The position numbers and the translations under genes were made by a program. Under the pieces are notes generated by a model. It saw only the letters and a list, made by a program, of their open reading frames with translations, was not told the DNA's origin and did not search any database. Positions 2,453 to 20,505 of a stretch of DNA of 64,000 bases are shown here, piece by piece. The DNA comes from Cyclobacteriaceae bacterium (GTDB lineage: Bacteria > Bacteroidota > Bacteroidia > Cytophagales > Cyclobacteriaceae): NCBI GenBank assembly GCA_031430395.1, contig JANPBK010000073.1:15099-79098 (forward strand), read 5' to 3'. Within the stretch, counting starts at the first letter, position 1. Every line of letters starts with the position of its first letter.

Positions 2453-4453
2453 ATGGATTCAATTTCAAAAAAACATTCCCTTTCAGCAGCCGGAGTTTTA
2501 GTAGCGATGGGAATTATCTATGGGGACATTGGCACCTCTCCTATTTATACACTACGTTTTATTGTTGGTCATCGTGCCGTTTCTGAAGAATTAATCCTCG
2601 GAGGACTTTCGTTGGTATTTTGGACGCTCACCATTATTACGACTATAAAATACGTATACTTAGCACTTAGCGCAGACAATAAAGGAGAGGGTGGTATTTT
2701 CGCACTTTACGCACTCGTTAGAAAATATCGAGCAGGGTGGGTAATATTCCCTGCCATCATTGGCTGTTGTACATTAATTGCAGATGGTTTTATGACTCCT
2801 GCCATGAGTGTTACATCGGCAGTGGAGGGGATAAAAACACTCATGCCTTCCATTTCTGATCAGACCATTATTACGATCGTAATCATTATTCTCGTAGCTC
2901 TTTTTGTATTCCAGCAATTTGGTAGCAGTGTAGTCGGAAAAACATTTGGACCCGTCATGTTGGTTTGGTTTGTTTTTATTGGGGCAATTGGTGCTTATCA
3001 CCTATCGTTCAATTTTGGTGTTCTAAAAGCTATCAACCCAAACTATGGAGTTAATTTACTGCTAAAATACCCTGGAGGATTCTGGATTCTAGGAGCGATT
3101 TTCTTATGTACAACTGGAGCCGAGGCCATGTACTCGGATCTTGGTCATTGTGGAAAATCAAACATTCGGTTAGGCTGGGGATTTGTAAAAGTATGTTTGC
3201 TACTTAGTTATTTTGGCCAGGGTGCTTGGCTACTATCTTCATTCGAAGGGAAACCACTGGGCGAAACGATCCCATTCTTTTCAATGATGCCCGGATGGCT
3301 ATTAATCTTTGGGGTAATCATTGCTACGATGGCCACGGTCATTGCAAGCCAGGCCTTAATCTCCGGCACATTTACACTTGTCAACGAAGCGATGAAGTTA
3401 AAGTTGTGGCCTGCTACTCGTGTGCGTTACCCTAGCCAAATGAAAGGTCAAATTTATATTCCAGCGATCAACTGGATTCTGATGTTTGGTTGCATTTTGG
3501 TAGTACTTTATTTTAAAGCTTCCGATAAAATGCAGTCGGCCTACGGCTTGGCTATTACCTTTGATATGTTAATGACCACTTCTTTGCTGGTGTACTATTT
3601 TTCAACCGTTAAAAAATCAACGATCCGATCTACTCTTTTAGCCATTCTATTCTTTACGGTAGAGACTGCTTTCTTGATTTCTAACCTGAGCAAATTTTCT
3701 CATGGCGGTTGGTTCTCATTCTCTATCGCGTTAATTTTCTTTTTGATGATGTTCATTCTACTGCGAGCTCGAGAGCTTAGAGACCGTCATACCGAGTTTG
3801 TTGACTTGAAACATTATATACCGCTCATCCAAGACTTGCAAGCGGATACTTCCATCCCTCGAGAAGCAACTAATTTAGTTTACATGGCTGTTGCAGATAG
3901 TAAGCGATACATTGATTCTAATATCATTTATTCCATTTTCAAAAAACGGCCGAAGAAAGCAGATGTATACTGGTTTGTACATGTTGATACAGTAGATAGT
4001 CCGTTTACTTCAAAATATTCTGTGGACACGATCATTCCTAAAAAATGCTTTTTTGTTAGGATCAAACTTGGATTTAAAGCAGACCATCGTGTGAACCTGC
4101 TGTTTAATAGAATTTTGCATGACATGGCCGAAGCAGCCGAGATTGACTTGATCAGTCATTATGAATCGCTTCAAAAACACAGTATGCCTTCAGATTTTAA
4201 GTTCATTATGCTCCACTCGTTAGCTTCAGTAGATAGTGAAATATCCAGCTTTGATAATTTTATCATACAGGGATACCGATTCATTAAGAAACACAGCTTA
4301 TCTACAGAAGAAATGTATGGTTTAGAACTAGCTAATGTAGAAGTAGAACGTGTCCCTATTATGGTTGGTCCTCCTGCTAAAGTGCGCATCAAACGAGAAA
4401 AGGAAGACCTGGAACGCGAAAAAGAGCTTAAATACCACGGGCATATCAATTGA
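2453..4453 (+). CDS. kup: KUP/HAK/KT family potassium transporter
   Basis: GIIYGDIGTSPIY, ADNKGEGGIFALY and TGAEAMYSDLGH signature motifs; about 12 TM segments plus a cytoplasmic tail. Confidence 0.95.
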   Translation: MDSISKKHSLSAAGVLVAMGIIYGDIGTSPIYTLRFIVGHRAVSEELILGGLSLVFWTLTIITTIKYVYLALSADNKGEGGIFALYALVRKYRAGWVIFPAIIGCCTLIADGFMTPAMSVTSAVEGIKTLMPSISDQTIITIVIIILVALFVFQQFGSSVVGKTFGPVMLVWFVFIGAIGAYHLSFNFGVLKAINPNYGVNLLLKYPGGFWILGAIFLCTTGAEAMYSDLGHCGKSNIRLGWGFVKVCLLLSYFGQGAWLLSSFEGKPLGETIPFFSMMPGWLLIFGVIIATMATVIASQALISGTFTLVNEAMKLKLWPATRVRYPSQMKGQIYIPAINWILMFGCILVVLYFKASDKMQSAYGLAITFDMLMTTSLLVYYFSTVKKSTIRSTLLAILFFTVETAFLISNLSKFSHGGWFSFSIALIFFLMMFILLRARELRDRHTEFVDLKHYIPLIQDLQADTSIPREATNLVYMAVADSKRYIDSNIIYSIFKKRPKKADVYWFVHVDTVDSPFTSKYSVDTIIPKKCFFVRIKLGFKADHRVNLLFNRILHDMAEAAEIDLISHYESLQKHSMPSDFKFIMLHSLASVDSEISSFDNFIIQGYRFIKKHSLSTEEMYGLELANVEVERVPIMVGPPAKVRIKREKEDLEREKELKYHGHIN

Positions 4454-4486
4454 CCGATTGCGGACGTATTCGTTCGTATTTGATAC
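4451..4486. promoter_or_regulatory. Putative tandem enhancer (bEBP) sites, copy 1
   Basis: TGACCG-ATTG-CGGACG (4451-4466) and CGTTCG-TATT-TGATAC (4471-4486); a matching pair occurs at 12413/12433. Confidence 0.55.
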
Positions 4487-4538
4487 CCAATTGTCCTATA
4501 AAAGGCCGTTTCCAATTATTTTAGGCGGCTAAAATCAT

Positions 4539-4553
4539 TGGCACTGATTTGGG
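4539..4553 (+). promoter_or_regulatory. Putative sigma54-type -24/-12 promoter, copy 1
   Basis: TGGCACTGATTTGGG, 30 nt before the permease ATG; -24 box good, -12 box non-canonical. Confidence 0.45.
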
Positions 4554-4582
4554 AAGGTGTTGCTTGTATCTAACTGCAAGCT

Positions 4583-6946
4583 ATGCTCCGCAACTATATC
4601 AAAATCGCCTTTAGAAGTCTACTAAAAAATCAGACCTACTCCATTATCAACATTGGCGGTCTCGCCATTGGGCTTGCCTCCAGCGTCTTAATTTTTTTGT
4701 GGGTGGCTGATGAATATGCCTACGACAAGTTTCAAATCAACTACAACAACATTTATAAGCTCTACCAAAGTCAAGAATGGAATGGCCATATCGGCACGGG
4801 AAACAGCATGCCTTACCACCTAAAGGAAGCGTTGCTTGATAAGTCTAGCAAAATAGAGAGCGTTGTGATGACCAACTGGGGCGAAGGAAATTTGCTGCAG
4901 GTGGGAGAAAACAGGCTCAACAAATACGGCATTAGCGCGAGTGAAGATTTTTTTAAAGTGTTCAGCTACAAGATGATCGCGGGAGATCCTGCAACAGCAT
5001 TAAACGAACCTACCAAAATTGTCATTACCGAGTCTACTGCTAAATCGTTATTTAAAGACAGCAACGCTCTCAATCAAACCATTAAAGTTGATAACGGTGA
5101 TGAGCTCAAAGTATCAGGAATCATTAAAGATCTCCCGGAACAATCATTTTTGGAGATTGACTATATCTTGCCTTTCAGCTACTTCGAAAAAGAAAATTCC
5201 TGGGTACGCTATTCAAAAGATAGTTGGGACAATAATAGTTTCCAGATGTATGCGCTACTAAAAAATGGAACCACCAAAGAGGAAGTTGACCAATCCATCG
5301 TTTCAATTTTAAAGGACAATAACCCCAAAGCACCTACCGCCAAGTTGTTCCTGCATCCGATGGACAAGTGGCGTTTACATTCCAACTTTGAAGAAGGTAA
5401 AAATACAGGTGGCCAAATTGTTTATGTCAGGCTCTTCACAGCTATTGCCATTTTTGTTCTAATCATTGCATGTATCAACTTTATGAATCTGGCGACTGCA
5501 CGCAGTGAAAGCCGGGCACGGGAAGTGGGCATTCGCAAAAGCATTGGCTCACGCAGGAAAGAATTGATTCTTCAGTTTCTTGGGGAATCTGTCGCCATTA
5601 CCACTTTCGCATTTTTATTGGCAGTGGTAGTAGTAGAGTTAGTACTCCCGAGTTACAATATTTTAGTAAAAAAGAGTATTGCCATTAGCTATGGAGATCC
5701 TATGATATGGATAGCCGCCATTACATTGGTGTTGGTAATTGGATTATTGGCAGGGAGCTACCCATCCTTTTATCTATCCTCATTTGAAGCGGTAAAAGTC
5801 CTGAAAGGAAAAGTGAATGTGGGCAAAGGTGCGAGCACACCCAGACAGGTCTTGGTAGTGCTTCAATTTGGGTTTTCGATCTTTCTTATTGCCGGAACCA
5901 TCGTGATCTACCAACAGATTCAGCATGTAAAAAACCGAGACATGGGATACGATAGGGAAAACCTTATTCAAATTTGGATGAATGGCGAGCTTCAGAACAA
6001 CTTTAGCACCATCAGGCAAGAGTTGGTAAACACAGGCGTTGTCGAACACGCGTGTAAAAGCAATAGTCCTGTTACTGCCGTCTTCTCGAGCAACGAAGTA
6101 AAGTGGCCAGGCATGTCTACCGATCAACGCGTGGCATTTAGCACGATAGCCACAGAATACGATTATACCAAAACCATGGGAATCAAAATGATTGAGGGTC
6201 GTGATTTTTCTCGGGAATTTAACGACTCACTTTCAGTGATCGTCAACGAAGCAGCCATTAAAATGATGGGAATGGGAAATCCGATCGGCAAAAAAATTGA
6301 AACAAACGGTTCTCAATTGGAAATTGTGGGCGTGGTACCAGACGTTGTGATGGACTCGCCTTACCAACCCGTGGAGCCGATGACGCTGTTGTTCAATCCG
6401 GGATGGAGTAGCACCGTAACCGTGCGCTTGGTCAAAACAAAAGACATTCAAGCATCGCTTGCAAAAGTAGAAAGTATATTTAAAAAGTTGAATCCCAATT
6501 ATCCATTTCAATATCGATTCACAGATGAAGATTTTCAAAAGAAATTTACTGACATAAATTTGATTAGCCGATTGGCAGGAATTTTTGCTGGCCTGGCCAT
6601 TGTCATTACTTGTTTAGGACTATTTGGGTTGGCAGCCTTCACAGCCGAGCAGCGCACCAAGGAAGTTGGTATTCGCAAAGTGATGGGCGCGTCTGTGGCC
6701 AGTTTGGTTATGCTCATCTCCAAAGATTTTTCGCGATTAGTCATCATAGCGTTCGCCATTGCTGCACCTTTCGCCTGGTGGTTTTTAAATGGTTTTCTAG
6801 AGCAGTATGATTATCGTATTGAGGTAGCTTGGTGGGTATTAGGAGCTGTAGGTGCCTTTGCGTTGCTACTGGCTTTGATGATAGTAAGTGCACAAGCATT
6901 GAAGGCAGCCGTTACAAATCCCAGCAACAGTCTGAGAAGTGAGTAA
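4583..6946 (+). CDS. MacB/FtsX-type ABC transporter permease (duplicated MacB_PCD+FtsX), paralog 1
   Basis: 787 aa; NIGGLAIG, IACINFMNLATAR...REVGIRKSIG, EQRTKEVGIRKVMGA, C-terminal NPSNSLRSE. Confidence 0.9.
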   Translation: MLRNYIKIAFRSLLKNQTYSIINIGGLAIGLASSVLIFLWVADEYAYDKFQINYNNIYKLYQSQEWNGHIGTGNSMPYHLKEALLDKSSKIESVVMTNWGEGNLLQVGENRLNKYGISASEDFFKVFSYKMIAGDPATALNEPTKIVITESTAKSLFKDSNALNQTIKVDNGDELKVSGIIKDLPEQSFLEIDYILPFSYFEKENSWVRYSKDSWDNNSFQMYALLKNGTTKEEVDQSIVSILKDNNPKAPTAKLFLHPMDKWRLHSNFEEGKNTGGQIVYVRLFTAIAIFVLIIACINFMNLATARSESRAREVGIRKSIGSRRKELILQFLGESVAITTFAFLLAVVVVELVLPSYNILVKKSIAISYGDPMIWIAAITLVLVIGLLAGSYPSFYLSSFEAVKVLKGKVNVGKGASTPRQVLVVLQFGFSIFLIAGTIVIYQQIQHVKNRDMGYDRENLIQIWMNGELQNNFSTIRQELVNTGVVEHACKSNSPVTAVFSSNEVKWPGMSTDQRVAFSTIATEYDYTKTMGIKMIEGRDFSREFNDSLSVIVNEAAIKMMGMGNPIGKKIETNGSQLEIVGVVPDVVMDSPYQPVEPMTLLFNPGWSSTVTVRLVKTKDIQASLAKVESIFKKLNPNYPFQYRFTDEDFQKKFTDINLISRLAGIFAGLAIVITCLGLFGLAAFTAEQRTKEVGIRKVMGASVASLVMLISKDFSRLVIIAFAIAAPFAWWFLNGFLEQYDYRIEVAWWVLGAVGAFALLLALMIVSAQALKAAVTNPSNSLRSE

Positions 6947-7224
6947 GAAATATATTTTCAATAAGTAGACAGAACTATTAACCAGGATGAGGCAATCTCG
7001 TTTGCACTTGCTGCTCAAATTGAATGGTGGATACTGAATTCATTTTTGAACATTATTCAAATCGCCCTAACTTTCCCTATGGGGCATTTGAGTCGCAGGC
7101 GCTTAACACTACCATTCGTGGTGGGCATTATCAGAACGCTAGTGGATGGATTTCAAAAATGGCTAATCCCTACGGTTTTTGCGCTTAAAATTAAATCGTA
7201 AGATTGTAGTGCTTTAGGCAAAGT

Positions 7225-8787
7225 ATGAATCCCATCAAAAGAATTGCCCTCATCCTTACGATCATTTTTCTCATACCCGTACTTTTCTTTTCGGTGTATG
7301 AGATCTCTTCGCTTAACAAGGATGAAAAAATGATCGAAGACATATATAACAAGCAATTGGAGGCAATCCTCTTTTCGGTCAACCAACATGCAGATAACGC
7401 ATTGGAGAACTGGGTAGCAAAAGCGCAACGCGGCTTAGAAAATCGATCTATTGAAAAAGAAATTCCATCTTCTATACAGGCATTGCTTACCAACGCTGCC
7501 GTGAAAATGGTTTTTTTCGTGGATAGTTTGGATGATTCTTCCATTCGGGAATACACCCAAGATAGTCTGCTAATTGACTCACTTCGTCCTTTCATCATAA
7601 ACGCATTGAAAAAAAACAGCAAGCAAATCGATAAACTAATTGGCTATAAGAAAAGTGGGTTTCAAAAAATAGAAGTGATCCAAAGTGGTTGGCAGGGTGA
7701 TAACAATGGTCAGATGCTAATTTTTATAGCCGATGGCGTGGGTTCTCCTTTTCGAATTGCCGGACTTATCGTAGACCCTTCTGCCGTAATCGAAGATATT
7801 GTAGGCCCACGTCTCCAGGTAATTGCCAAAGATCAATTTATCTTGTCTGTATTCTCAAAATCATCGATCAACCCCATTTACTCGACCCAGCAAGGTGATA
7901 CCACTCGCCTAAACTCCGATGCATTCACGAAAGAACTTTGGATATTTCCCGATTACTCCCTCGGCATACGCACTAAAGGAGCATCGCTACAACAAATTGT
8001 TAAAGAACGCACAACGACCAATCTAATTTTCCTTGTTGGGCTAGATATCGTACTCATCATCGCCCTCGTTCTTGTTTTTAGAAACATAAAAAAAGAAGTT
8101 CAACTCGCACAAAACAAATCCGACTTCGTTTCTAATGTTTCGCACGAAATTCGTACACCGTTGGCCTTGATCAGTATGTTTGCCGAAACTCTTGAAATGG
8201 GACGCGCAAAAACTGAAGAGAAAAAACAAGAGTACTATTCAATCATCACCAAAGAAACGCAACGCCTTTCAGCTATCGTGAACAAAATATTAAACTTCAG
8301 CCAAGCCGAAGCTGGTAAGAAAAAGCTTAATATTGAATCTATTGAACTAACTAAAGAGATCCAGGCAATTCTAAAAACCTATGACTTCCATTTGAAAAAT
8401 AAAGGGTTTGAATATCATTTTGAACCGCGAGAGCCCCTTTTGGTTAGAGCCGACAAAGAAGCGATTACGGAAATGATCATCAACCTAATCGATAATGCAA
8501 TCAAATACAGCAGCACTCAAAAGAAAATTGAAATCACTGTAGGGCATGATGTTAACTTTGGATGGGTGACTGTAAAAGACCTTGGGTTGGGAATTGCCAA
8601 GGATGATCAGAAACATGTATTCGATAAATTCTATCGCGTTTCGAGCGGCAATTTGGCCAAAAACCAAGGCACAGGACTTGGGCTTTCCATTGTTAAAGAA
8701 TTGATTGAGCAGCAGCATGGAAAAATATCTGTCAATAGCGAACTAGGCAAAGGATCAACATTTACTCTTTACTTTCCACTCACATAG
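7225..8787 (+). CDS. Membrane sensor histidine kinase
   Basis: N-terminal TM, about 240-aa extracytoplasmic domain, second TM, H-box NVSHEIRTPL, N-box NLIDNAIKYS, G-boxes DLGLGI and GTGLGLSIV. Confidence 0.92.
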   Translation: MNPIKRIALILTIIFLIPVLFFSVYEISSLNKDEKMIEDIYNKQLEAILFSVNQHADNALENWVAKAQRGLENRSIEKEIPSSIQALLTNAAVKMVFFVDSLDDSSIREYTQDSLLIDSLRPFIINALKKNSKQIDKLIGYKKSGFQKIEVIQSGWQGDNNGQMLIFIADGVGSPFRIAGLIVDPSAVIEDIVGPRLQVIAKDQFILSVFSKSSINPIYSTQQGDTTRLNSDAFTKELWIFPDYSLGIRTKGASLQQIVKERTTTNLIFLVGLDIVLIIALVLVFRNIKKEVQLAQNKSDFVSNVSHEIRTPLALISMFAETLEMGRAKTEEKKQEYYSIITKETQRLSAIVNKILNFSQAEAGKKKLNIESIELTKEIQAILKTYDFHLKNKGFEYHFEPREPLLVRADKEAITEMIINLIDNAIKYSSTQKKIEITVGHDVNFGWVTVKDLGLGIAKDDQKHVFDKFYRVSSGNLAKNQGTGLGLSIVKELIEQQHGKISVNSELGKGSTFTLYFPLT

Positions 8788-8790
8788 AAA

Positions 8791-9474
8791 ATGGCAAAAT
8801 TACTAATCATTGAAGACGAACCTTCCATGCAACTCGGGTTAAAGGACAACATGATATTAGAGGGATATCTGGTAGAAACGGCAAGCGATGGCGAAGAAGG
8901 TTTGTCTAAAATAAAAACCAACTCGTTCGATCTGATTTTATTGGATGTGATGCTGCCTAAACTCTCCGGCTTTGATGTTTGCAAAGCTGCCAGATCATCC
9001 GGCATCGGCACTCCGATCGTTCTATTAACTGCGCGCGGAGAAGAAATCGATAAAATATTGGGTCTTGAGTTTGGAGCTGATGACTACATCACCAAACCAT
9101 TTAGTGTTCGCGAGTTATTGGCGCGGGTAAAAGCAATTTTAAGACGCAGTCAACTTCAGCCTGTAAAAGACACTGCCAGAACTACAATCGGCAGGCTCCA
9201 TATTGATTTCGAGTCCTTTCACGCCACAGAAAATCAGACGGAAATAAAGCTATCCCATAAAGAGTTTGAAATCTTATCTTATTTGAATCAACATAAAAAC
9301 CAAGTAGTAAGCCGTTACGATCTATTGGAAAAAGTATGGGGTTATGATGAACAACCCACCACCCGAACGGTTGACAACTTTATCGTTCGCCTTCGGCAAA
9401 AAGTAGAATTTAATCCCAACCAACCAAGATTCATTTTAACTGTACACGGCACCGGTTACAAACTCGTTATTTAG
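8791..9474 (+). CDS. OmpR/PhoB-family response regulator
   Basis: IIEDE, LLDVMLP (phospho-Asp), GADDYITKPFS, winged-helix RTVDNFIVRLRQK...TVHGTGYK; starts 3 bp after the kinase. Confidence 0.93.
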   Translation: MAKLLIIEDEPSMQLGLKDNMILEGYLVETASDGEEGLSKIKTNSFDLILLDVMLPKLSGFDVCKAARSSGIGTPIVLLTARGEEIDKILGLEFGADDYITKPFSVRELLARVKAILRRSQLQPVKDTARTTIGRLHIDFESFHATENQTEIKLSHKEFEILSYLNQHKNQVVSRYDLLEKVWGYDEQPTTRTVDNFIVRLRQKVEFNPNQPRFILTVHGTGYKLVI

Positions 9475-9544
9475 TCGTTAGTCGACAGCCCCTAATCTAT
9501 GGCTGGCAAGTAATCGGCCTTGGTCAATCGACCAATCACAAGCA

Positions 9545-9597
9545 GTTACATCTTGTTACAAACCTTTACCGCATGGTGACATCTTCACCCGGTGACC
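9545..9597 (+). promoter_or_regulatory. Phased direct repeats, candidate OmpR-family binding sites
   Basis: GTTACA at 9545 and 9555, TTTACC 9565, GTGACA 9576 (10-11-bp period), GTGACC 9592; GTTACATCTT and GTGACATCTT are near-identical. Confidence 0.5.
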
Positions 9598-9650
9598 TCC
9601 CGTTATTTGTAGTGTGAATCAAATTATAAAAACACTAAACAACTAATATC

Positions 9651-10055
9651 ATGAAAACAAAAATCATCATCGCGGGCGTTATCGTAGCAACCATCAGTGT
9701 TATGACATTGAGAAATGCTCAAGCACAAAATCAACAAGATCTTTCAGTAAAAATAATTCCTACCGCACAAAAGGACATCATCAAAGTTATCTACGCCTAC
9801 AACTCAGAGGAAGCAGTGAGTGTAAAGTTCAGCAATCGGGAAGAAGTTCTTAAAACAGACAAAATCTCTGCGAAAGATTTTCAAGGAGGTTTTTCAAAAA
9901 AATATGATGTCGAGAGAATGGATAATAAACCATTTTGGGTAGAAATAAGCAACTCTACTCTATCCGTAACCTATAGAATGAAATCGTTAAACGGTAGGTG
10001 GTCTGCGCAACTTGAAAAAACAACTAACAACAATCCAATAGTAGCAATGAATTAG
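9651..10055 (+). CDS. Small secreted protein, possibly a stand-alone Ig/T9SS-CTD-like fold
   Basis: Signal peptide ending AQA; beta-rich body (VSVKFSN...GFSKKYDV...FWVEIS). Confidence 0.7.
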   Translation: MKTKIIIAGVIVATISVMTLRNAQAQNQQDLSVKIIPTAQKDIIKVIYAYNSEEAVSVKFSNREEVLKTDKISAKDFQGGFSKKYDVERMDNKPFWVEISNSTLSVTYRMKSLNGRWSAQLEKTTNNNPIVAMN

Positions 10056-10060
10056 GGTTC

Positions 10061-10112
10061 GTTTGAGAAAGGTGACGTAGCTTTTGATCAGGCTACTCAC
10101 CTTCACTCAAAC
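10061..10112 (+). other. Long intergenic stem-loop (mRNA stabiliser or weak terminator)
   Basis: GTTTGAG/CTCAAAC, AAGGTGA/TCACCTT and GTAGC/GCTAC nested arms; no U-tract follows. Confidence 0.6.
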
Positions 10113-10147
10113 ATTTGTAATTTTACAACACTGATAAATTATTTCCT

Positions 10148-11116
10148 TTGAAAACAGGCATTATTCTTTTCCTACTTTCCCTTCTTCCAATCGATTCTAT
10201 TTTTTCGCAAGTAATCCGTCTCAATGGAGACTGGAAATTTCATATTGGAGATCGCTCAGGATGGTCTGCTACTGATTATCAAGATGGAAGTTGGGAGTCG
10301 ATTCGAGTACCCGCTCATTGGGAAGATGAAGGATTCAATGGTTATGACGGATTTGCGTGGTACCGAAAAAGTTTTGACGGTACTATATTAGTAAAGGAAG
10401 AAAACTACTATCTCAACGTAGGTTTTATTGATGATTGTGATGAAGTCTACTTAAATGGAGTGCTCGTTGGTCTTTCCGGTTCAATGCCACCGAAATTTAA
10501 AACTGCCTATAATACCGAACGAAAATATACACTGCCCAGTGAACTGATCAACTTCAAGGGTATGAACAGCATCGCTATCCGGGTATATGATGTTACTCAG
10601 GGTGGTGGCGTCATTGATGGTAAATTGGGCATCTATCGTTCTCCGAAAAGTAGAATGCTGGTAGACCTGCAAGGATTATGGTCATTTACTACTAGCAAAG
10701 ACTGGCAACCGATAAAAGATGATCGGGAATGGAAAAAAATAATGGTTCCTTCGAATTGGGAGCGTCAGGGTTATTCAAGATATGATGGGTTTGCCTGGTA
10801 CAGAAAAACATTTACGCTTGATATAAAGTCCATTTCGAATGACGAGGATTTAGTTCTATTGCTTGGTAAAATAGATGACTTCGACAGAACTTATCTCAAC
10901 GGTAAGCAAATTGGAAAAACGCACGATGGACAACCATATGGAGAAAGTCGATCATTCGACCAACTCCGTGTCTACACCATTCCAATTGGATGGTTGAAAA
11001 AAGACGGCCTGAATACAATCGAAGTAATGGTGGAAGATATGGGTAATGATGGTGGAATCTATCAAGGACCTGTGGGAATTACCACGAGAACATCTTTTGA
11101 AAGATATTATCGTTGA
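10148..11116 (+). CDS. Secreted protein with two tandem GH2-type sugar-binding (beta-galactosidase jelly-roll) domains and no catalytic barrel
   Basis: TTG start and signal peptide. Internal duplication: LNGDWKF..W..I.VP.HWE..G...YDGFAWYRK.F..GFIDDCDEVYLNG versus LQGLWSF..W..I.VP.NWE..G...YDGFAWYRKTF..GKIDDFDRTYLNG. Confidence 0.8.
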   Translation: MKTGIILFLLSLLPIDSIFSQVIRLNGDWKFHIGDRSGWSATDYQDGSWESIRVPAHWEDEGFNGYDGFAWYRKSFDGTILVKEENYYLNVGFIDDCDEVYLNGVLVGLSGSMPPKFKTAYNTERKYTLPSELINFKGMNSIAIRVYDVTQGGGVIDGKLGIYRSPKSRMLVDLQGLWSFTTSKDWQPIKDDREWKKIMVPSNWERQGYSRYDGFAWYRKTFTLDIKSISNDEDLVLLLGKIDDFDRTYLNGKQIGKTHDGQPYGESRSFDQLRVYTIPIGWLKKDGLNTIEVMVEDMGNDGGIYQGPVGITTRTSFERYYR

Positions 11117-11181
11117 CGATTATTACTTTCTACTTGCTTGGAAGAGAAGTTAATTCGTTCTATTTTGGAGCTACTAAAAAC

Positions 11182-12435
11182 ATGTTTCGAATTATTCTCT
11201 TCTTGCTTTTCGTCAGTTCTTATTCCCACCTAAGCATTGCACAAACAGAGAAAAAATCGATCAAAGGCAAAGTCATTGATGCTACCACAAAAGAACCACT
11301 GCCTTTTGTTAACGTGTTCTTAGCGAACACCACTATTGGTACTAGCACTAGTATTGACGGAAGCTTTGTTATCTCCGGGGTTCCTGCAGGAAAATATGAT
11401 TTAATTGTTTCTACGATAGGATATCTTCCATTTTCTCAGCAAGTCGATTTTTCTGAGATGACACAAGGATATACAAAAGAGCTAAATATCAATATTGAGC
11501 TAAATCAAGAAACAAAAGTACTAAATGAGATTATCGTTAAACCTGACACCATTAACTGGGCTCGAAATTTTGCCTATTTTAAAAGGCATTTCCTGGGAGA
11601 AACACACCTCTCATCAAAATGTAAAATTCTTAACCCAAAAGTTCTTCATTTTTATTTAGATACGTTAGATGGTGTGTTAGTGGCACATGCCAAACAACCT
11701 ATTGAAATAGAAAATCTCGGTTTAGGTTATAAGATCATCTATTATTTATACCAATTCGAATATAAATACAGAGAAGGTGCCCTTTTTGTTTATGGTCTTC
11801 CTCGCTATGAGGAATTAAAAGCGACTAAAGAGAAAGACCTGAAAAAGTGGAAGAAGGAACGAGAAAATGCTTATCGAGGGTCGGTCATGCATTTTATGAG
11901 AAGTCTTCGTGAAAATTCAATTACTTCAAACAAATTTTCTATTCGAAAAATCTATCATGTAAAAAATAGAAAACGTCCTGCGGATAGCCTGATTAACAAG
12001 AAAATTCAAGCGCTAATGAAAGACAAAAAAACAATAGTTATTGATTATTCCAATAACCCAAAAGACAGCCTATCCTACTATTTACGTTTAAAGTCTCAGC
12101 CAAAAGAGATTGATAGTATTCCATCAAACTTTTATTCTGGTAGAGAATTCTGGAATGAATCAAGTAATACGTTTGAAAATATTAAAGGAAGGTATGAAGT
12201 CATATATGATGAAAAAGAAGAAGTTGAATACCTTTGGGTAGCTGGAAGGAATCATACTACAAAGCAAAAAAGTACATTCCAATTCTTACAAGATTCTCTC
12301 AAAATTTTTGAGAACGGATACTATGAAGATGTTCGTTGCCTCTTCGTAGAAGGGTATCTTTCATGGCACGAGAAATTATCCACCTTGATGCCTTTAGAGT
12401 ATTCTTCAGAAGTGTCCGATAGCGAACGCGAATGA
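11182..12435 (+). CDS. Carboxypeptidase-regulatory-like domain protein with C-terminal domain of unknown function
   Basis: ATG 11182 preferred over TTG 11113; signal peptide, then IKGKVIDATTKEPLPFVNVFLANTTIGT; ends LMPLEY. Confidence 0.8.
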   Translation: MFRIILFLLFVSSYSHLSIAQTEKKSIKGKVIDATTKEPLPFVNVFLANTTIGTSTSIDGSFVISGVPAGKYDLIVSTIGYLPFSQQVDFSEMTQGYTKELNINIELNQETKVLNEIIVKPDTINWARNFAYFKRHFLGETHLSSKCKILNPKVLHFYLDTLDGVLVAHAKQPIEIENLGLGYKIIYYLYQFEYKYREGALFVYGLPRYEELKATKEKDLKKWKKERENAYRGSVMHFMRSLRENSITSNKFSIRKIYHVKNRKRPADSLINKKIQALMKDKKTIVIDYSNNPKDSLSYYLRLKSQPKEIDSIPSNFYSGREFWNESSNTFENIKGRYEVIYDEKEEVEYLWVAGRNHTTKQKSTFQFLQDSLKIFENGYYEDVRCLFVEGYLSWHEKLSTLMPLEYSSEVSDSERE

Positions 12436-12448
12436 CTTAATTCGAACG
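12413..12448. promoter_or_regulatory. Putative tandem enhancer (bEBP) sites, copy 2
   Basis: TGTCCG-ATAG-CGAACG (12413-12428, inside the 3' end of the upstream CDS) and TGACTT-AATT-CGAACG (12433-12448). Confidence 0.55.
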
Positions 12449-12500
12449 TTTCTTTTAACGAAAAACGCCTTTACAAGCTAGATTTACATTATCACCTAGA

Positions 12501-12524
12501 TGGCATTGTTCTTGGATATCCAAG
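12501..12524 (+). promoter_or_regulatory. Putative sigma54-type promoter, copy 2, overlapped by a perfect 14-bp palindrome
   Basis: TGGCAT-TGTTC-TTGG (canonical GG-N10-G spacing); CTTGGATATCCAAG at 12511-12524. Confidence 0.55.
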
Positions 12525-12594: not shown

Positions 12595-15039
12595 ATGCTA
12601 CACAGCTTAAAAATCGTGTTCCGCCACCTTGGCCGTCAAAAGCTCAATAGCTCCTTGCACATTATAGGCCTTACACTTGGCCTGAGTGTTTGTCTGGTAA
12701 TTGGGCTTTTCATCCGGTATGAATTGAGTTTTGATGGCTACCATGAAAAAGCAGACCGCACCTATCGAATTATTTCAAAGTGGACACAAAATGGTAAATC
12801 CGATTACCACTTTTCTACTCCCTTTCCATTAGCAAATGTAATTCGTACTGAAGCAACAGGACTTGAGCATGTGAGTTTTGCACATCCCGTTTATACCAAA
12901 ATTGTAGAAGTAAGCCCACAAAAGAAATTTATTGATGAGCGCATCATGGCGGTAGAGCCAGAGTTTCTCGATATTTTTAAAGTAGAAACTCTAAAAGGTG
13001 ACCTATACAAAACACTTCGCACTCCGTATCAAGCCGCACTTACAGAATCTACTGCCAAAAAACTTTTTGGCAGTGAAGACCCCATCGGAAAAACAATAAG
13101 TTTTACTGTTCGCGATAAATTCGAATTTACTGTTGGGGCTCTCATCAAAGACTTCCCTTCTAACACGCATCTGCCAGCTTCCATGCTAGTGTCGTATTCG
13201 TATGCAGAAAAATTTCTGCAACCCAATTTAGATGGATGGACGTATGTTTCCGGAACGGAGACATTGATCGTGGTTCCAGAAAATGCTGATATGAAGCTTA
13301 TACTAGCTCAAATCAAAACGATTGGTGACAAGCATATCAATGCAAAAGAAAATTTACCTGAATTCAAAAGCGAACTTGAAATTCAGCCACTGAGCGAAGT
13401 TCATTTTAATAGCTCGTTTGCAGGCGGTGGCAATTGGGTAAAAGCTGTATCAGTCAGTTGGTTGTGGTTTTTTGGCATCATTGGTATAGCCGTATTAGTG
13501 TTGGCATGTATTAACTTCATCAACTTATCTACTGCTCAAGCGCTGACACGCGCAAAAGAAGTAGGTGTGCGTAAGTCCGTTGGAGCAGGAAGATTCAATC
13601 TGATAGCTCAATTTTTATCAGAGGCTTGGATACTGACGTTTGTATCAGGAATATTTGCAGTTGCCATTGCCCAATTGGTAATGCCCAATATCAATACATT
13701 ATTGGATAAAAATATCCCCTTCGATCTCACCAAATCACCCATGTTACTTCTTTTTATTTTAGGAGCAGTGATCTTTATTGGATTGATGGCTGGAATTTAT
13801 CCGGCTTGGGTAATTTCGAAATTCAATCCATCACTTACATTAAAGGCTGGATCAACTTCATCGGGAGATCATGGCTCTGCCTGGTTACGCAAAGGACTAG
13901 TGGTAACTCAATTCAGTCTTTCAATTGGCCTGTTAATGGTTGTACTCTTGATTGCCCAACAAGTTAATTTTCTTCGCAATAAGAATCTAGGATTTACGAA
14001 AGACAATATTGTAAATGTTGAAATTCAACCACGTGCTCTCCAACATAATCTGTTTAAAAACGAACTTGAAAAAATAAATCAAGTGAAAGATGTTTCATTT
14101 GCCACTGCTACTCCCAGCAGCCAAGGCCATTGGGGAACCATCATGAATCGAACCGGCAGAGAAGATCCATCCAGAAAAGAAGTGACCCTAATTTTCGCTG
14201 ATGATCGCTTTTGCAAAATGTACGGATTGGAATTGCTGGCAGGTCGATTTCTTGAAGCCTCCGACACCAACTACGTGGCTACGTCAGTAGCTGAAAAAGA
14301 TCAAATTATGAAGGCTGTAGTCAATGAGCAGCTGATCAAGGAACTGGCGTATAAATCAAATGAAGAAGCGATTGGCCAACGCATATGGGTTGGTTGGAAT
14401 AGTGGCAACTTAGAAATCGTAGGTGTGGTTCGTGATTTTAACACTGGATCATTACATGAAGCTATCAAATCAGCATTGATCACTCCAAATCCAAGAGACT
14501 ACGAGCAGGCAGGAATAAAAATCGAGGCGAATAGCAATGTACCTGAAACAATAGCCGCCATAGAAACTGCTTGGAAAACAACTTATCCCGAAGGAATTTT
14601 TACTTACAAATTCTTAGACGAACAGATAGATAGTTTTTATAAGGCAGAAGAAAGACTTTTTAATCTCTTCAAAATATTCGCTGGCCTTGCCATGTTTATT
14701 TCCTGTTTAGGTCTATGGGGGTTGGCTACGTTCTCGGCTCAGTCAAGAACCAAAGAAATCGGAATTCGGAAAGTTCTTGGAGCGTCCGTAGATAAAATTG
14801 TGTTGTTACTTTCAAAAGATTTTTTGCTGCTAGTTTTAATTGCATTGGTGATTGCCACTCCACTAGCATGGTACGGCATGAATCAATGGTTACAAAACTA
14901 TGCTTTCCGTACAGAAATTACTTGGTGGATATTTGGATTTTCGGGAATGATAGCAATAACAATTGCTATCATAACAGTGAGTTTTCAAGCCGTCAAAGCA
15001 GCAATTAGTAATCCTGTAGAAAGTTTGAGAAGCGAATAA
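12595..15039 (+). CDS. MacB/FtsX-type ABC permease, paralog 2
   Basis: 814 aa; LACINFINLSTAQ..RAKEVGVRKSVGA; RTKEIGIRKVLGA; NPVESLRSE. Confidence 0.9.
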   Translation: MLHSLKIVFRHLGRQKLNSSLHIIGLTLGLSVCLVIGLFIRYELSFDGYHEKADRTYRIISKWTQNGKSDYHFSTPFPLANVIRTEATGLEHVSFAHPVYTKIVEVSPQKKFIDERIMAVEPEFLDIFKVETLKGDLYKTLRTPYQAALTESTAKKLFGSEDPIGKTISFTVRDKFEFTVGALIKDFPSNTHLPASMLVSYSYAEKFLQPNLDGWTYVSGTETLIVVPENADMKLILAQIKTIGDKHINAKENLPEFKSELEIQPLSEVHFNSSFAGGGNWVKAVSVSWLWFFGIIGIAVLVLACINFINLSTAQALTRAKEVGVRKSVGAGRFNLIAQFLSEAWILTFVSGIFAVAIAQLVMPNINTLLDKNIPFDLTKSPMLLLFILGAVIFIGLMAGIYPAWVISKFNPSLTLKAGSTSSGDHGSAWLRKGLVVTQFSLSIGLLMVVLLIAQQVNFLRNKNLGFTKDNIVNVEIQPRALQHNLFKNELEKINQVKDVSFATATPSSQGHWGTIMNRTGREDPSRKEVTLIFADDRFCKMYGLELLAGRFLEASDTNYVATSVAEKDQIMKAVVNEQLIKELAYKSNEEAIGQRIWVGWNSGNLEIVGVVRDFNTGSLHEAIKSALITPNPRDYEQAGIKIEANSNVPETIAAIETAWKTTYPEGIFTYKFLDEQIDSFYKAEERLFNLFKIFAGLAMFISCLGLWGLATFSAQSRTKEIGIRKVLGASVDKIVLLLSKDFLLLVLIALVIATPLAWYGMNQWLQNYAFRTEITWWIFGFSGMIAITIAIITVSFQAVKAAISNPVESLRSE

Positions 15040-15110
15040 TATGTCGTTGTAGGTTGATTGTTATTGGATGCTCATAATTTATGACGAACAATGAATAAGG
15101 AACTAAAGAT

Positions 15111-17459
15111 ATGCTAAAGAGTTATTTAAAAATCGCCCTTCGTTCTTTGATCAAGAACAAAACCTATTCTTTCATTAACATTGCAGGGCTATCGGTTGGC
15201 ATTGCCGTAAGCCTTATCATTTTTCTCTATGTAGTGCATGAATACAGTTATGATAAATTTCACGCTAAGGGCGATAACATCTATCGCATTCTGTGTAAAA
15301 TAAACTATGGAGGGCAGGAAATTCAAACGACCGCCATGTCGGCTCAGTTTGGCCCGATACTAAAAGAGAACAATGCCGATGTAGAAAATTACGTTCGTGT
15401 TTACGGCATAGGAAGAACGCTAATGAAGTCGGACGATAACCATGTCAATTTTGAAAACCAAATCGCTTTCTCTGATACTTCATTCTTCTCAGTTTTTTCC
15501 TTCCCTCTCATTCAGGGTGACTATCGTTTATTGACAAGACCCAGCACAGTAATCATCACAGAAAAAACAGCTATTAAATATTTTGGAAGTAAAGATGCCA
15601 TTGGCAAAACAATTACTTACGACAAAAAATATCCGCTTGAGGTCATTGCTATTGCAAAGGACTTTCCTTCCAATTCCTCCCTACAAGTAGACTTCGTCAT
15701 TTCCTTTAACACGATGGGTATCATTCCGGAAAATAAATCTGCCTATGAACATAAACTAGCAAGCCTAGGCTCTATCCCAACCTACGTAGTTGTAAATGAC
15801 GAACAATCTATTTCCAAAATAATTTCTTCTATTCCCAAGTTTGCCAAAACATCCGTAGATGAAAAATACAGGTTAGAAAAATTTGTGGGTACCCATTTTG
15901 GGAACAATATGGGAGATTCTTCTAATCTCACCTATCTATACCTTTTTATGGCCGTAGCTATTATTATTCTAGTACTAGCACTTATCAATTATATGAACCT
16001 TACCACAGCTCGCGCCACCTTGCGCGGCAAAGAGGTAGGTGTGCGCAAAGTAGTGGGTGCACGCCAGAGTAATCTTGCTTCTCAATTTTATTTTGAATCC
16101 GCTTTAATGACATTGACTGCATTCGCGCTAGCTGCTGTCTGGATAGAACTGTCTTTACCCATTTTCTTAAACATCCTGCAAATTCAAATAGACAAATCAT
16201 TTCTAACAAGTACTTGGTTCTTGAGCGTGATGGCTTCGCTATTGATTAGTTGCATTCTCCTGGCAGGTAGCTATCCTACATTAGTGCTTTCCAGATTTAA
16301 ACCAGCAGAAGTTTTAAAAGGGAAAGCAACTAAAGCAATAGGTAGCAGCGCATGGATACGCAAAGGATTTACTGTTTTTCAGTTCGCTGCCTCTATTGGC
16401 CTAATATTGGTAACACTTGGCATTCAGCATCAGCTAGGGTATTTACGCAATCAAAAAATTGGCCTGAACAAAGAACAAGTGATGGTCGTGAATTTAGATG
16501 CCGAAAGTGCTACTTACTACAACACATTGAAAAATGAATTGCGTGCACTGAGCGGAATCAAAGAGGTAGCTGCCGCTTCGATTCCACTTTATACAACAGG
16601 GTTCAATGCTATGTTTGTAAAAACCCCTACTACGAATGAAGATGTGTTTATCCTGGACTTGTCTGTCGATGAGAATTTTATTTCCACACTTGGGATAGAA
16701 TGGGTAGAAAAACCAGATGCAATTAATAGGCCTGGTCTTATTATCAATGAAGCTGCGTTGGAAGAACTAAAAATTAAAAAAACAGATATTGGTGTTAAGT
16801 TAAACGATCAACCCATCAACGGTATCGTAAAGAATTTTAATTATCAATCGCTTCGTCAAAAAATAAATGGAATGGTTTTATCTATCCAATCTGATACATC
16901 CTCAAGTTTGACGAAGTATGGCGCATCACTTTATTTGCGAATGGATCCCAAAGCTAACCTCACTGATAGAGTTGCTACCGTACAATCCATATTCAAAAAA
17001 TACCAAGGGAATAGACCATTTGAATATTATTTTTTAGATGATGCGTTCGATCAGCTTTATAAATCAGAAGATAGGCTTTCGCAGATTTTTAACATTTTCA
17101 CCATCATCGCCATAGTAATCGCCTGCCTTGGCTTATTTGGATTGATCACATTTACTGCTGAGATGCGAACGAAAGAGATCGGCATTCGAAAAGTACTTGG
17201 CGCCAGCATTCAAAATATTTTCACACTGTTATCGAAAGATTTCATCATTCTTGTACTTGCCGGAGTTGTGTTCGCAATACCCGCTGCATGGTGGTACTTA
17301 CAAAGTTGGTTACAACAGTTCTCATACAAAGCTGAGATACCTTGGTGGTTTGGATTGTTGGCAGCATGTGCAGCATTACTAATTTCTTTCCTAACGATAT
17401 GCACACAGGCTATCAAGGCTGCGGTAAGCAATCCGGTGGAGAGCTTAAGAAGCGAGTAG
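15111..17459 (+). CDS. MacB/FtsX-type ABC permease, paralog 3
   Basis: 782 aa; INYMNLTTARATLRGKEVGVRKVVGA; RTKEIGIRKVLGA; NPVESLRSE. Confidence 0.9.
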   Translation: MLKSYLKIALRSLIKNKTYSFINIAGLSVGIAVSLIIFLYVVHEYSYDKFHAKGDNIYRILCKINYGGQEIQTTAMSAQFGPILKENNADVENYVRVYGIGRTLMKSDDNHVNFENQIAFSDTSFFSVFSFPLIQGDYRLLTRPSTVIITEKTAIKYFGSKDAIGKTITYDKKYPLEVIAIAKDFPSNSSLQVDFVISFNTMGIIPENKSAYEHKLASLGSIPTYVVVNDEQSISKIISSIPKFAKTSVDEKYRLEKFVGTHFGNNMGDSSNLTYLYLFMAVAIIILVLALINYMNLTTARATLRGKEVGVRKVVGARQSNLASQFYFESALMTLTAFALAAVWIELSLPIFLNILQIQIDKSFLTSTWFLSVMASLLISCILLAGSYPTLVLSRFKPAEVLKGKATKAIGSSAWIRKGFTVFQFAASIGLILVTLGIQHQLGYLRNQKIGLNKEQVMVVNLDAESATYYNTLKNELRALSGIKEVAAASIPLYTTGFNAMFVKTPTTNEDVFILDLSVDENFISTLGIEWVEKPDAINRPGLIINEAALEELKIKKTDIGVKLNDQPINGIVKNFNYQSLRQKINGMVLSIQSDTSSSLTKYGASLYLRMDPKANLTDRVATVQSIFKKYQGNRPFEYYFLDDAFDQLYKSEDRLSQIFNIFTIIAIVIACLGLFGLITFTAEMRTKEIGIRKVLGASIQNIFTLLSKDFIILVLAGVVFAIPAAWWYLQSWLQQFSYKAEIPWWFGLLAACAALLISFLTICTQAIKAAVSNPVESLRSE

Positions 17460-17466
17460 TTGCCAT

Positions 17467-17493
17467 GCAACCAAAGCAATTAAAAGGTCGTCT
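17467..17493 (+). promoter_or_regulatory. Putative ECF sigma promoter
   Basis: GCAACC-N16-CGTCT (AAC...CGT ECF pattern), ending 21 nt before ATG 17515. Confidence 0.55.
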
Positions 17494-17514
17494 AATTGAT
17501 AAGGAGATAAACCG

Positions 17515-17901
17515 ATGTTTATGAAAAGTATATTAATCGTACTATTATCGTTAGTATCAATCACGAGCAACGCTCAAAATGATGATCTAATTAACAAGTT
17601 GATTCTTACAACTAAAGAAGGCCTTCAGCAAAAGAAAGAAGTTACCTTCGATAATCAATCAACTAGTTTACAGGTTGGCGAATGGATTATTCCTGTTTCA
17701 AAAAATACGTTGGTTAAAATCGAGTTTGAAAACGGCTACCATGAAGTCGAATTTAATTTACAAAAAGGAACTGTTATAAGAAGCACCGCTGACTCCAATT
17801 GGAGAAGAGCTTCATTCGCTTTATCTTTCAAGTCGCGGAAAGCTGCAAAGAATTTCATTCATTTATTCCGAGAAATAACAGAAAAAGAAAACGTAAACTA
17901 A
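17515..17901 (+). CDS. Small secreted hypothetical protein
   Basis: 128 aa; signal peptide ending SNA|Q; AAGGAG lies 8 nt before the ATG. Confidence 0.7.
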   Translation: MFMKSILIVLLSLVSITSNAQNDDLINKLILTTKEGLQQKKEVTFDNQSTSLQVGEWIIPVSKNTLVKIEFENGYHEVEFNLQKGTVIRSTADSNWRRASFALSFKSRKAAKNFIHLFREITEKENVN

Positions 17902-17922
17902 GAAACTCAACCATCGGCCAAA

Positions 17923-20316: not shown

Positions 20317-20330
20317 TATGTAATTAATGG

Positions 20331-20434
20331 GAGGCAAAAACAGGGATTCATCATTAATATGTAAGAACTAGGCTTTTGGTTATCGTTGAAATGAAATATT
20401 CCTGTAATATTTCACGTAAGGTTTTGCCTCTTTA
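20331..20434. other. Nested inverted repeats in the intergenic region between permeases 4 and 5
   Basis: GAGGCAAAA (20331) / TTTTGCCTC (20422-20430) followed by TTTT, enclosing TGAAATATT-cctgt-AATATTTCA (20392-20414). Confidence 0.5.
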
Positions 20435-20505
20435 TTCAATTTTTCTTCAAATAGTATCTTCTACATTGCCTATTCAACTTAACTATTAAGTTAATACAGG
20501 CACGC

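Follow-up and report, generated by a model that had tools for sequence, protein, structure and literature searches.

A conserved module of a probable enhancer and a sigma-54-type promoter upstream of duplicated MacB/FtsX-type permease genes in Bacteroidota

We have analyzed a 64,000-nucleotide stretch of DNA from a Cyclobacteriaceae bacterium (GenBank assembly GCA_031430395.1, contig JANPBK010000073.1, positions 15,099 to 79,098 of the forward strand; hereafter, the window), in which two loci for ~800-aa permeases are each preceded by a palindromic enhancer-like sequence and, 88 bp further on, by a TGGCA promoter element. We observed that this two-part module is conserved, that its spacing is constrained, that it is dedicated to one family of permeases, and that elsewhere it adjoins the gene for a regulator with a Sigma54_activat domain. 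It is likely, judging from these sequence comparisons, that each copy represents an enhancer, or upstream activating sequence (UAS), together with a sigma-54-dependent promoter, and that the enhancer would be bound by a phosphorylated NtrC-family regulator encoded outside the window. Sigma-54 promoters, which are recognized by their -24 and -12 elements, need a bacterial enhancer-binding protein (bEBP), usually bound to palindromic sites ~80–150 bp upstream. The elements in question, numbered from the first nucleotide of the window, are as follows.

4451..4476, + strand: enhancer (UAS) copy 1, with half-sites TGACCG (4451-56), CGGACG (4461-66) and CGTTCG (4471-76)
4539..4553, + strand: sigma-54-type promoter 1, TGGCAC-tgatt-TGGG, with the -24 GG at 4540-41 and the -13 G at 4552
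12413..12448, + strand: enhancer (UAS) copy 2, TGTCCG-atag-CGAACG plus a weaker 16-mer, TGACTT-aatt-CGAACG
12501..12515, + strand: sigma-54-type promoter 2, TGGCAT-tgttc-TTGG, with the -24 GG at 12502-03 and the -13 G at 12514

On re-reading the sequence, we found that the coordinates of both copies and both 88-bp offsets from enhancer to TGGCA, as given in a preliminary description of this DNA, were exact, and that the first 16-mers of the two copies, TGACCGATTGCGGACG (4451-4466) and TGTCCGATAGCGAACG (12413-12428), are identical at 13 of 16 positions, as had been reported. The same description placed a second site 20 bp after the first. There is such a site, but it is better read as a third half-site that shares the central half-site with the first palindrome: in copy 1 the half-sites start 10 bp apart and form two overlapping 16-bp palindromes, and two separate tandem 16-mers are apparent only in copy 2, where the second is TGACTTAATTCGAACG (12433-12448), and in one related locus, L003. 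The consensus proposed earlier, YGTYCG-N4-CGRACR, was essentially right and is refined here to TGYCCG-N4-CGRACR-N4-YGTYCG; the pattern common to the two window copies is TGNCCG-N4-CGRACG(-N4-YGTYCG), with TGGCAY-N5-T(T/G)GG 88 bp on. Copy 1 begins at the TGA stop codon (4451-4453) of the gene for the potassium transporter Kup, so that stop codon and half-site TGACCG share the bases TGA; an enhancer abutting Kup is also seen in loci L011 and L002. Copy 2 lies partly within a coding sequence, as had been noted, and overlaps the last seven codons and the stop codon (12433-35) of an open reading frame (ORF) at 11113-12435.

With respect to the promoter elements, the -24 sequence TGGCAC, with its invariant GG, is represented by TGGCAC at 4539 and by TGGCAT at 12501, while the -12 boxes are TGGG and TTGG; we found no canonical sigma-54 promoter within the window. 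From the positions of the elements, transcription would start at ~4565 for promoter 1, 18 nt to the 5' side of the ATG, and at ~12527 for promoter 2, 68 nt to the 5' side of the ATG. When the two copies were aligned in register, three matching islands appeared: the enhancer, an A/T-tract near 4500, and TGGCAY-N5-TnGGA. The A/T-tract island, AAAAGGCCGTTTCC at 4497-4512 and AAAACGCCTTTACA at 12459-12474, is located between the enhancer and the -24 element, and may act as a bend or as a binding site for a nucleoid protein; CTATAAAA(G/C)G stretches in loci L001 and L009 resemble it, at a different distance.

Within the window alone, the evidence for a shared module was marginal. The in-register identity of the two copies is 52/106, and comparably similar position pairs occur at ~1.3e-6 per pair, so that several hundred thousand comparisons of upstream regions could yield such a similarity, and the evidence is marginal after correction for multiple testing. 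The two-part pattern gave 2 matches in the 64 kb, as compared to 0.00 in shuffled sequences, a comparison that is not independent since the patterns were derived from these same two sites. Each single motif, when no mismatch was allowed, matched only these two places; with one mismatch allowed, the single motifs were not rarer than in the shuffles. These are the points that would favor a chance coincidence, in which two intergenic regions without any relationship would agree at 13/16 positions, and have TGGCA at an equal distance, by accident.

A much stronger signal was obtained from related genomes. A search with the first permease of the window (P1) returned 79 related loci, and we scanned their 1.53 Mb with regular expressions for the enhancer and for the promoter. 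The promoter expression was matched 86–90 bp downstream in 17 of 31 enhancer matches, where ~0.02 would be expected by chance, and nowhere else in the range of 60–130 bp from any of the 31. Thus, the scan of relatives with a two-part pattern, as recommended in the preliminary description, revealed a constrained spacing, which is 86–90 bp rather than strictly 88 bp, and a module tied to permease genes. Five bases of the enhancer (C4, C5, G12, A14 and C15) are invariant in all 17 loci. The third half-site at +20, which was absent from the search expression, is conserved as nGTYCG (G 15/17, T 12/17, Y 17/17, C 14/17 and G 11/17), and the enhancer as a whole is best described as three half-sites at 10-bp intervals, each inverted with respect to its neighbor, which make up two overlapping 16-bp palindromes.

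Counterparts of enhancer copy 1 follow Kup in L011, L002 and L009 and precede P1 orthologs in L019, L003 and L017. The gene order NDH2-Kup-[module]-permease is syntenic in five relatives (L019, L009, L011, L003 and L002), and because Kup itself is only 73–82% identical in these, the intergenic match reflects constraint. As an example, the P1 ortholog of L019 is preceded by TGCCCG-catc-CGGACG-gttc-CGTTCG and, further on, TGGCATTGAATTAGAA. The layout is similar in L011, L017, L003, L001, L009 and L002, as well as in distant loci from Algoriphagus, Arcicella and Chitinophagaceae. Among the genome loci, operons for ~800-aa permeases follow 18 of 20 relaxed instances of the module, which usually stands before the first gene of an array. 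In some arrays (L087, L195 and L062 8857-9789), the first gene after the module encodes a ~310-aa SSGGSI-repeat protein, the L062 copy of which gave no Pfam match, and at L062 599-1288 it encodes a DUF2807 protein, with permeases following in each case; the regulon may include accessory envelope proteins. We also observed that AACCTGCAACTTGT occurs three times in L001 (about 9850-9900), to the 5' side of the P1 ortholog.

We extended the survey to public metagenome contigs, using a pattern that consisted of TGGCA and the three half-sites with a gap of 59–63 nt, so that the -12 element and the neighboring genes lay outside the pattern. The scan yielded at least 125 instances in at least 120 stretches. 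All five gap sizes are populated among the matches listed (22, 26, 23, 34 and 20 instances for gaps of 59, 60, 61, 62 and 63 nt, respectively); the corresponding spacing of 85–89 bp is the whole 5-bp range that the pattern allowed, and across taxa the distance from enhancer to promoter is narrow but not fixed. For 92 of the 125 matches listed, position 6 is a pyrimidine and positions 12–14, which sit at the canonical sigma-54 spacing, read [TC][TGA]G, as compared to ~5% expected by chance. In the low-GC instances among these matches, position 6 is C or T in 70/74, although it was not part of the search, position 12 is T in 66/74 and position 14 is G in 71/74. The downstream element has the geometry of a sigma-54 promoter, as had been proposed: TGGCAY, five bases and TTG amount to GG-N10-G, and TTGC is found in higher-GC loci.

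The genes that follow were equally uniform. Among the matches listed, 97 instances have at least 600 nt of downstream sequence, and 72 of these precede either a permease (51) or an HlyD-family adaptor (21), the adaptor cases having an ABC ATPase and permeases next; when a -12-like element was also present, the share was 60/72. We conclude that the layout, as the preliminary description had supposed, is a conserved functional module, in which both the spacing and positions that were not searched for have been kept in relatives and metagenomes.

The candidate regulator was found by clustering the recurrent neighbors of the module. An examination of 2.3 Mb with strict GAFTGA and GESGTGKE expressions had detected no enhancer-binding protein, a negative that proved false because this regulator family has GAFTDA and GENGTGKE instead. 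In about 24 metagenome loci among the matches listed, the module stands beside a divergently oriented gene for a 461-aa protein with Response_reg, Sigma54_activat (E 3.7e-67), AAA_lid_14 and HTH_8 domains, and in 16 of the loci listed this protein has a 447-aa partner, a histidine kinase (HK), likewise divergent from the module. The first gene across the module from the regulator encodes an HlyD adaptor. In seven named Bacteroidota genomes, homologs of the regulator (46–52% identity) are found in the corresponding place, and the core gene order there is HK <- bEBP <- (module) -> HlyD - ATPase - 2 to 8 permeases.

Core locus homologs: L032, L049, L050 and L063 (Pinibacter), Chitinophagaceae; L041, Mucilaginibacter; L039, Pedobacter; L076, Winogradskyella

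Every bEBP that adjoins the module (L109 5342-6724, - strand, and its homologs) has G[AS][FY]TDA in place of GAFTGA, and a Walker A sequence of GENGTGKE. GAFTDA is among the natural variants expected to keep activation (PMC4641369), and its effect in VfmH has been called unknown (PMC10714721). The NCBIfam matches of the regulator (PEP-CTERM PrsR, AtoC, NtrC and ZraR) all fall far below the equivalog cutoffs, and its matches in the PDB are NtrC-family proteins, including NtrC1; by sequence, it is a member of an unnamed NtrC-family subgroup. These findings support the earlier suggestion of an NtrC-type activator as the binder, and no such regulator is among the proteins of the window, which agrees with the claim that it is encoded elsewhere. 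In the metagenome core loci the half-sites are the same as in the window, for example TGTCCG-tatg-CGGACA-tctg-CGTTCA. In L049 (4560-4800) and L063 (4700-4850), the DNA that separates the regulator gene from its enhancer contains ATTCAGTCT-like units repeated in long runs.

In the mechanism we propose, a regulator with a REC domain, an AAA+ domain bearing the GAFTDA loop and a Fis-type HTH would, when phosphorylated, bind TGYCCG-N4-CGRACR-N4-YGTYCG as dimers, on half-sites centered ~100–110 bp upstream of the predicted start. The bound regulator would oligomerize and loop to the sigma-54 RNA polymerase held in a closed complex at TGGCAY-N5-T(T/G)GR, and its use of ATP would open the promoter. 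Promoter 1 would drive P1, and promoter 2 would drive P2, P3, a 128-aa ORF, P4 and perhaps P5, these being the genes of a permease array that is probably transcribed from promoter 2 as a unit. The window permeases would be satellites of a conserved Bacteroidota efflux system, the core of which is the HK-bEBP-HlyD-ATPase-permease locus, and would borrow the ATPase and adaptor of such a core locus elsewhere in the genome; the inducing signal would probably be an envelope-active compound. Binding of the regulator to the half-sites, the dependence on sigma-54, the start sites, the operon structure, the sharing of ATPase and adaptor and the nature of the signal are all parts of the model that we infer from sequence and gene order.

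Several observations weigh against this interpretation. One is the -12 element, which in the preliminary description was called non-canonical in the two window copies and which we find to be systematically so across instances of the module: among the matches listed, position 15 of the low-GC instances is G or A, and is C in only 3/74, so that by the strict consensus these would be atypical sigma-54 promoters. In the higher-GC instances listed, position 15 is C in 20/44, which gives the canonical TGGCAC-N5-TTGC. Another is that neither a bEBP nor rpoN is encoded in the window, and that a bEBP, rpoN, a MacB-type ATPase and an adaptor are likewise not found in the closest relatives at up to 10 kb from their copies; the regulator assignment rests on adjacency in more distant loci. 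Also, in Chitinophagaceae, Sphingobacteriaceae and Flavobacteriaceae the core loci have a somewhat different enhancer, which consists of two TGTATC-N5-CGRACA sites with starts 22 bp apart. Finally, P5 is preceded by a gap of 190 nt, and may have its own promoter.

TGTATC-N5-CGRACA enhancers: L032 7480-7550; L049 4810-4850; L050 4716-4760; L041 5180-5225; L076 7880-7925

The putative recognition helix of the regulator reads TRSSLYRRL in the metagenome group vs TRTALYRRL in the named genomes, which suggests that the difference in enhancer sites co-varies with a change in the helix. The elements to the 3' side of the TGTATC-N5-CGRACA enhancers appeared to be less sigma-54-like, an example being TGGCACAGCTTTCCG.

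A bolder version of the model holds that one GAFTDA regulator co-induces the adaptor/ATPase core and unlinked, interchangeable arrays of orphan permeases through promoters that lack the -12 C. We hold this version tentatively and regard it as doubtful. Possibly, loss of the -12 C and the GAFTDA loop are co-adapted.

The alternative that fares best is that the module is bound by a protein that does not work with sigma-54, either the OmpR-type response regulator at 8791-9474 or a PadR-like protein, and that TGGCAY-N5-TTGR is an operator or the promoter of another sigma factor. ADOP (Acidobacterial duplicated orphan permease) genes, the permease family to which the window permeases are most similar, are described as paired with PadR regulators (TIGR03433/TIGR03434 descriptions). 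The lack of the canonical GC in the -12 element is consistent with such a binder, as is the presence of the HK/OmpR-type pair just to the 3' side of P1, and the 10-bp interval of the half-sites would fit winged-helix regulators as well. However, the half-sites are inverted and not direct repeats, TGGCAY with GG-N10-G is a sigma-54 signature that becomes TTGC in the higher-GC versions, the recurrent neighbor of the module is a PF00158 protein, and a class I/II sigma-70 activator could not act from a site fixed so far (~60 bp) to the 5' side of the promoter element. The HK/OmpR pair as regulator was rejected, since among the module-bearing loci it is kept only in L017. We judge this alternative to be improbable as a whole. 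In-register TAnnTTTG-like boxes, TATTTTAG at 4517 and TAGATTTA at 12479, were considered as housekeeping promoters and set aside; each has one mismatch and neither is conserved in relatives, and no exact TAnnTTTG was found between enhancer and ATG in 12 instances.

Less probable still is the possibility that the region upstream of P2 is a diverged, functionless copy of the region upstream of P1. The downstream genes are indeed paralogs, with 31% identity between the permeases, and the in-register similarity reaches the A/T-tract island. Yet, neutral intergenic DNA would have been randomized by the time the proteins had diverged to 31% identity, whereas here only the functional islands match, and these recur in metagenomes and in distant families. 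The two promoters may still share an ancestor, which would be compatible with function.

We assign a very small probability to the explanation that the palindromes are intrinsic terminators of Kup and of the ORF at 11113-12435, with the shared TGGCA incidental. Both copies are at the 3' ends of genes, and for copy 1 a hairpin of -14.7 kcal/mol (z = -2.7) is predicted. Copy 2, however, folds no better than its shuffles (z = +0.25), and no terminator-like site was called at either copy. What is conserved across loci is specific bases, not pairing maintained by compensatory change, and the coupling to TGGCAY at 86–90 bp would be left unexplained. Chance, which retains a practically negligible probability, is refuted by the agreement of the 86–90-bp spacing in the 17 related loci, the unsearched positions conserved in the metagenome instances, and the attachment of the module to one gene family.

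The remaining features of the window bear on the host and on the permease arrays. The window is Cytophagales-like, with a G+C content of ~40%, and the closest relatives recovered in the P1 search are metagenome-assembled genomes of Cytophagales, Cyclobacteriaceae and Chryseolinea. Among public sequencing runs, the sequence was found only in DNA metagenomes. Five of the genes in the window are for permeases of ~800 aa that are paralogs of one another, and Pfam places two MacB_PCD + FtsX units in each.

2453..4453, + strand: Kup potassium transporter (Pfam), an upstream neighbor kept in relatives, which anchors the orthology of copy 1 and is outside the regulon
4583..6946, + strand: permease P1, 787 aa, duplicated MacB_PCD + FtsX, ADOP-like, orphan
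12595-15039, + strand: permease P2, duplicated MacB_PCD + FtsX
15111-17459, + strand: permease P3, duplicated MacB_PCD + FtsX
17515-17901, + strand: 128-aa ORF (ORF128) between P3 and P4 inside the array, with no Pfam match
17923-20316, + strand: permease P4, duplicated MacB_PCD + FtsX
20506-22869, + strand: permease P5, duplicated MacB_PCD + FtsX
12595..22869, + strand: permease array P2-P3-ORF128-P4-P5, with intergenic gaps of 22–190 nt

The orthologs of P1 are 54–71% identical to it. The best NCBIfam match of these permeases is ADOP (TIGR03434), which aligns end to end, with 318 bits for P1 and 309 bits for P2 against a cutoff of 622. That the permeases are orphans, as first described, was borne out: no MacB-type ATPase or adaptor gene is adjacent to them or encoded anywhere in the window, which carries the permeases only and not a tripartite operon. 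Inside the P2–P5 array we found neither a further enhancer-promoter module nor a convincing terminator. In L009, the orthologs of P2 (75%) and P4 (70%) are contained within one Kup-adjacent array, in the same order as in the window array, and because L009 keeps them in a single array, the second promoter of the window probably arose when other genes split an ancestral single array. The genes that appear to have done so are the HK and OmpR-type response regulator genes and those next to them.

The HK/OmpR pair is located at 7225-9474; it and the next genes (hyp134 and a gene for a GH2-like protein) are syntenic only with L017. The 134-aa ORF that follows the response regulator (9651-10055) has a homolog in L017 and no Pfam match. 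Elsewhere in the window, at 50647-54933, is a gene for a 1428-aa DNA polymerase III alpha subunit with a fused N-terminal exonuclease (proofreading) domain of the RNase_T type.

Enhancer systems of the NtrB/NtrC-glnAp2 type, with relatives such as AtoSC, ZraSR, GlrKR and NifA (UAS TGT-N10-ACA), offer a close parallel. As in the NtrC systems, the regulator that adjoins the module is a two-component REC-AAA+-HTH_8 activator, and the palindromic sites are ~100 bp upstream of a putative -24/-12 promoter, where multiple adjacent sites would suit the nucleation of an oligomer; TGTCCG-N4-CGGACA also shares the TGT-N10-ACA geometry of the NifA UAS. The module differs from those systems in that its regulators carry a GAFTDA/GSFTDA contact loop and belong to an unnamed subfamily, its three half-sites 10 bp apart share the central one, its low-GC Bacteroidota promoters are without a conserved -12 C, and its targets are ABC efflux permeases and not nitrogen or metal genes.

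The window permeases can be compared similarly with known transporters. Like MacAB-TolC and the darobactin exporter DarBCD, the system has MacB_PCD + FtsX permeases, with an HlyD adaptor and a separate ABC ATPase in the core loci; unlike these, its permeases are internally duplicated (~800 aa), have no fused ATPase and occur in arrays of 2–8 paralogs, and those of the window have no adjacent ATPase or adaptor, with matches to DarB, DarC and MacB well below the cutoffs. They resemble ADOP in being duplicated, FtsX-type, present as many paralogs and without an adjacent ATPase, but their scores (309–318 bits) fall short of the cutoff, and they differ in phylum and in having a sigma-54 enhancer module. 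The BceRS-BceAB modules of Firmicutes have an OmpR-type regulator and sigma-70 promoters. The likeness is that a two-component system stands beside an FtsX-family ABC transporter that it induces, or here would induce, probably in response to envelope-active compounds; the differences are that here the regulator would be of the NtrC type, acting with sigma-54, and would also serve unlinked satellite arrays of permeases.

With respect to earlier reports, Flavobacterium psychrophilum has sigma-54, typical -24/-12 promoters and three PF00158 proteins (PMC9723704). In scans with position-specific scoring matrices (PSSMs) published in 2025, sigma-54 promoters were enriched upstream of COG0577 FtsX-like permeases in Bacteroidia, Opitutia and gamma-Proteobacteria, an association presented there as the first such evidence (PMC12316311). 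The parts of that report that we consulted describe PSSMs only, name Bacteroidia, not Cytophagia, for COG0577, and contain neither an enhancer motif nor a spacing nor a cognate regulator; relative to those parts, the present analysis adds the enhancer with its distance to the promoter, the satellite arrays and the two-component system next to the module. In our literature search, the coverage of which was incomplete, no paper turned up in which the enhancer motif or its distance from the promoter, the GAFTDA regulators as a family, or the organization in satellite arrays is described, and the literature searched contained no account of the role or regulation of the ~800-aa duplicated permeases.

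Soil and water Bacteroidota carry arrays, often in many copies, of these ~800-aa duplicated FtsX/MacB_PCD permeases. The mechanism suggested here, a two-component sigma-54 enhancer regulon, is of a known type and will not surprise specialists; the expansion of transporters that it would control is poorly understood. With a signature and a candidate kinase and activator in hand, the regulon can be listed by pattern search in any genome and the inducing signal can be looked for with a reporter, and the sharing of an ATPase and adaptor by orphan permeases becomes testable by genetics. In low-GC Bacteroidota, models that rely on the canonical TTGC may miss some of the sigma-54 promoters of this kind. 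If the bolder version of the model were true, the module would represent a lineage-specific variant of sigma-54 activation, in which the permease paralogs would set the substrate range.

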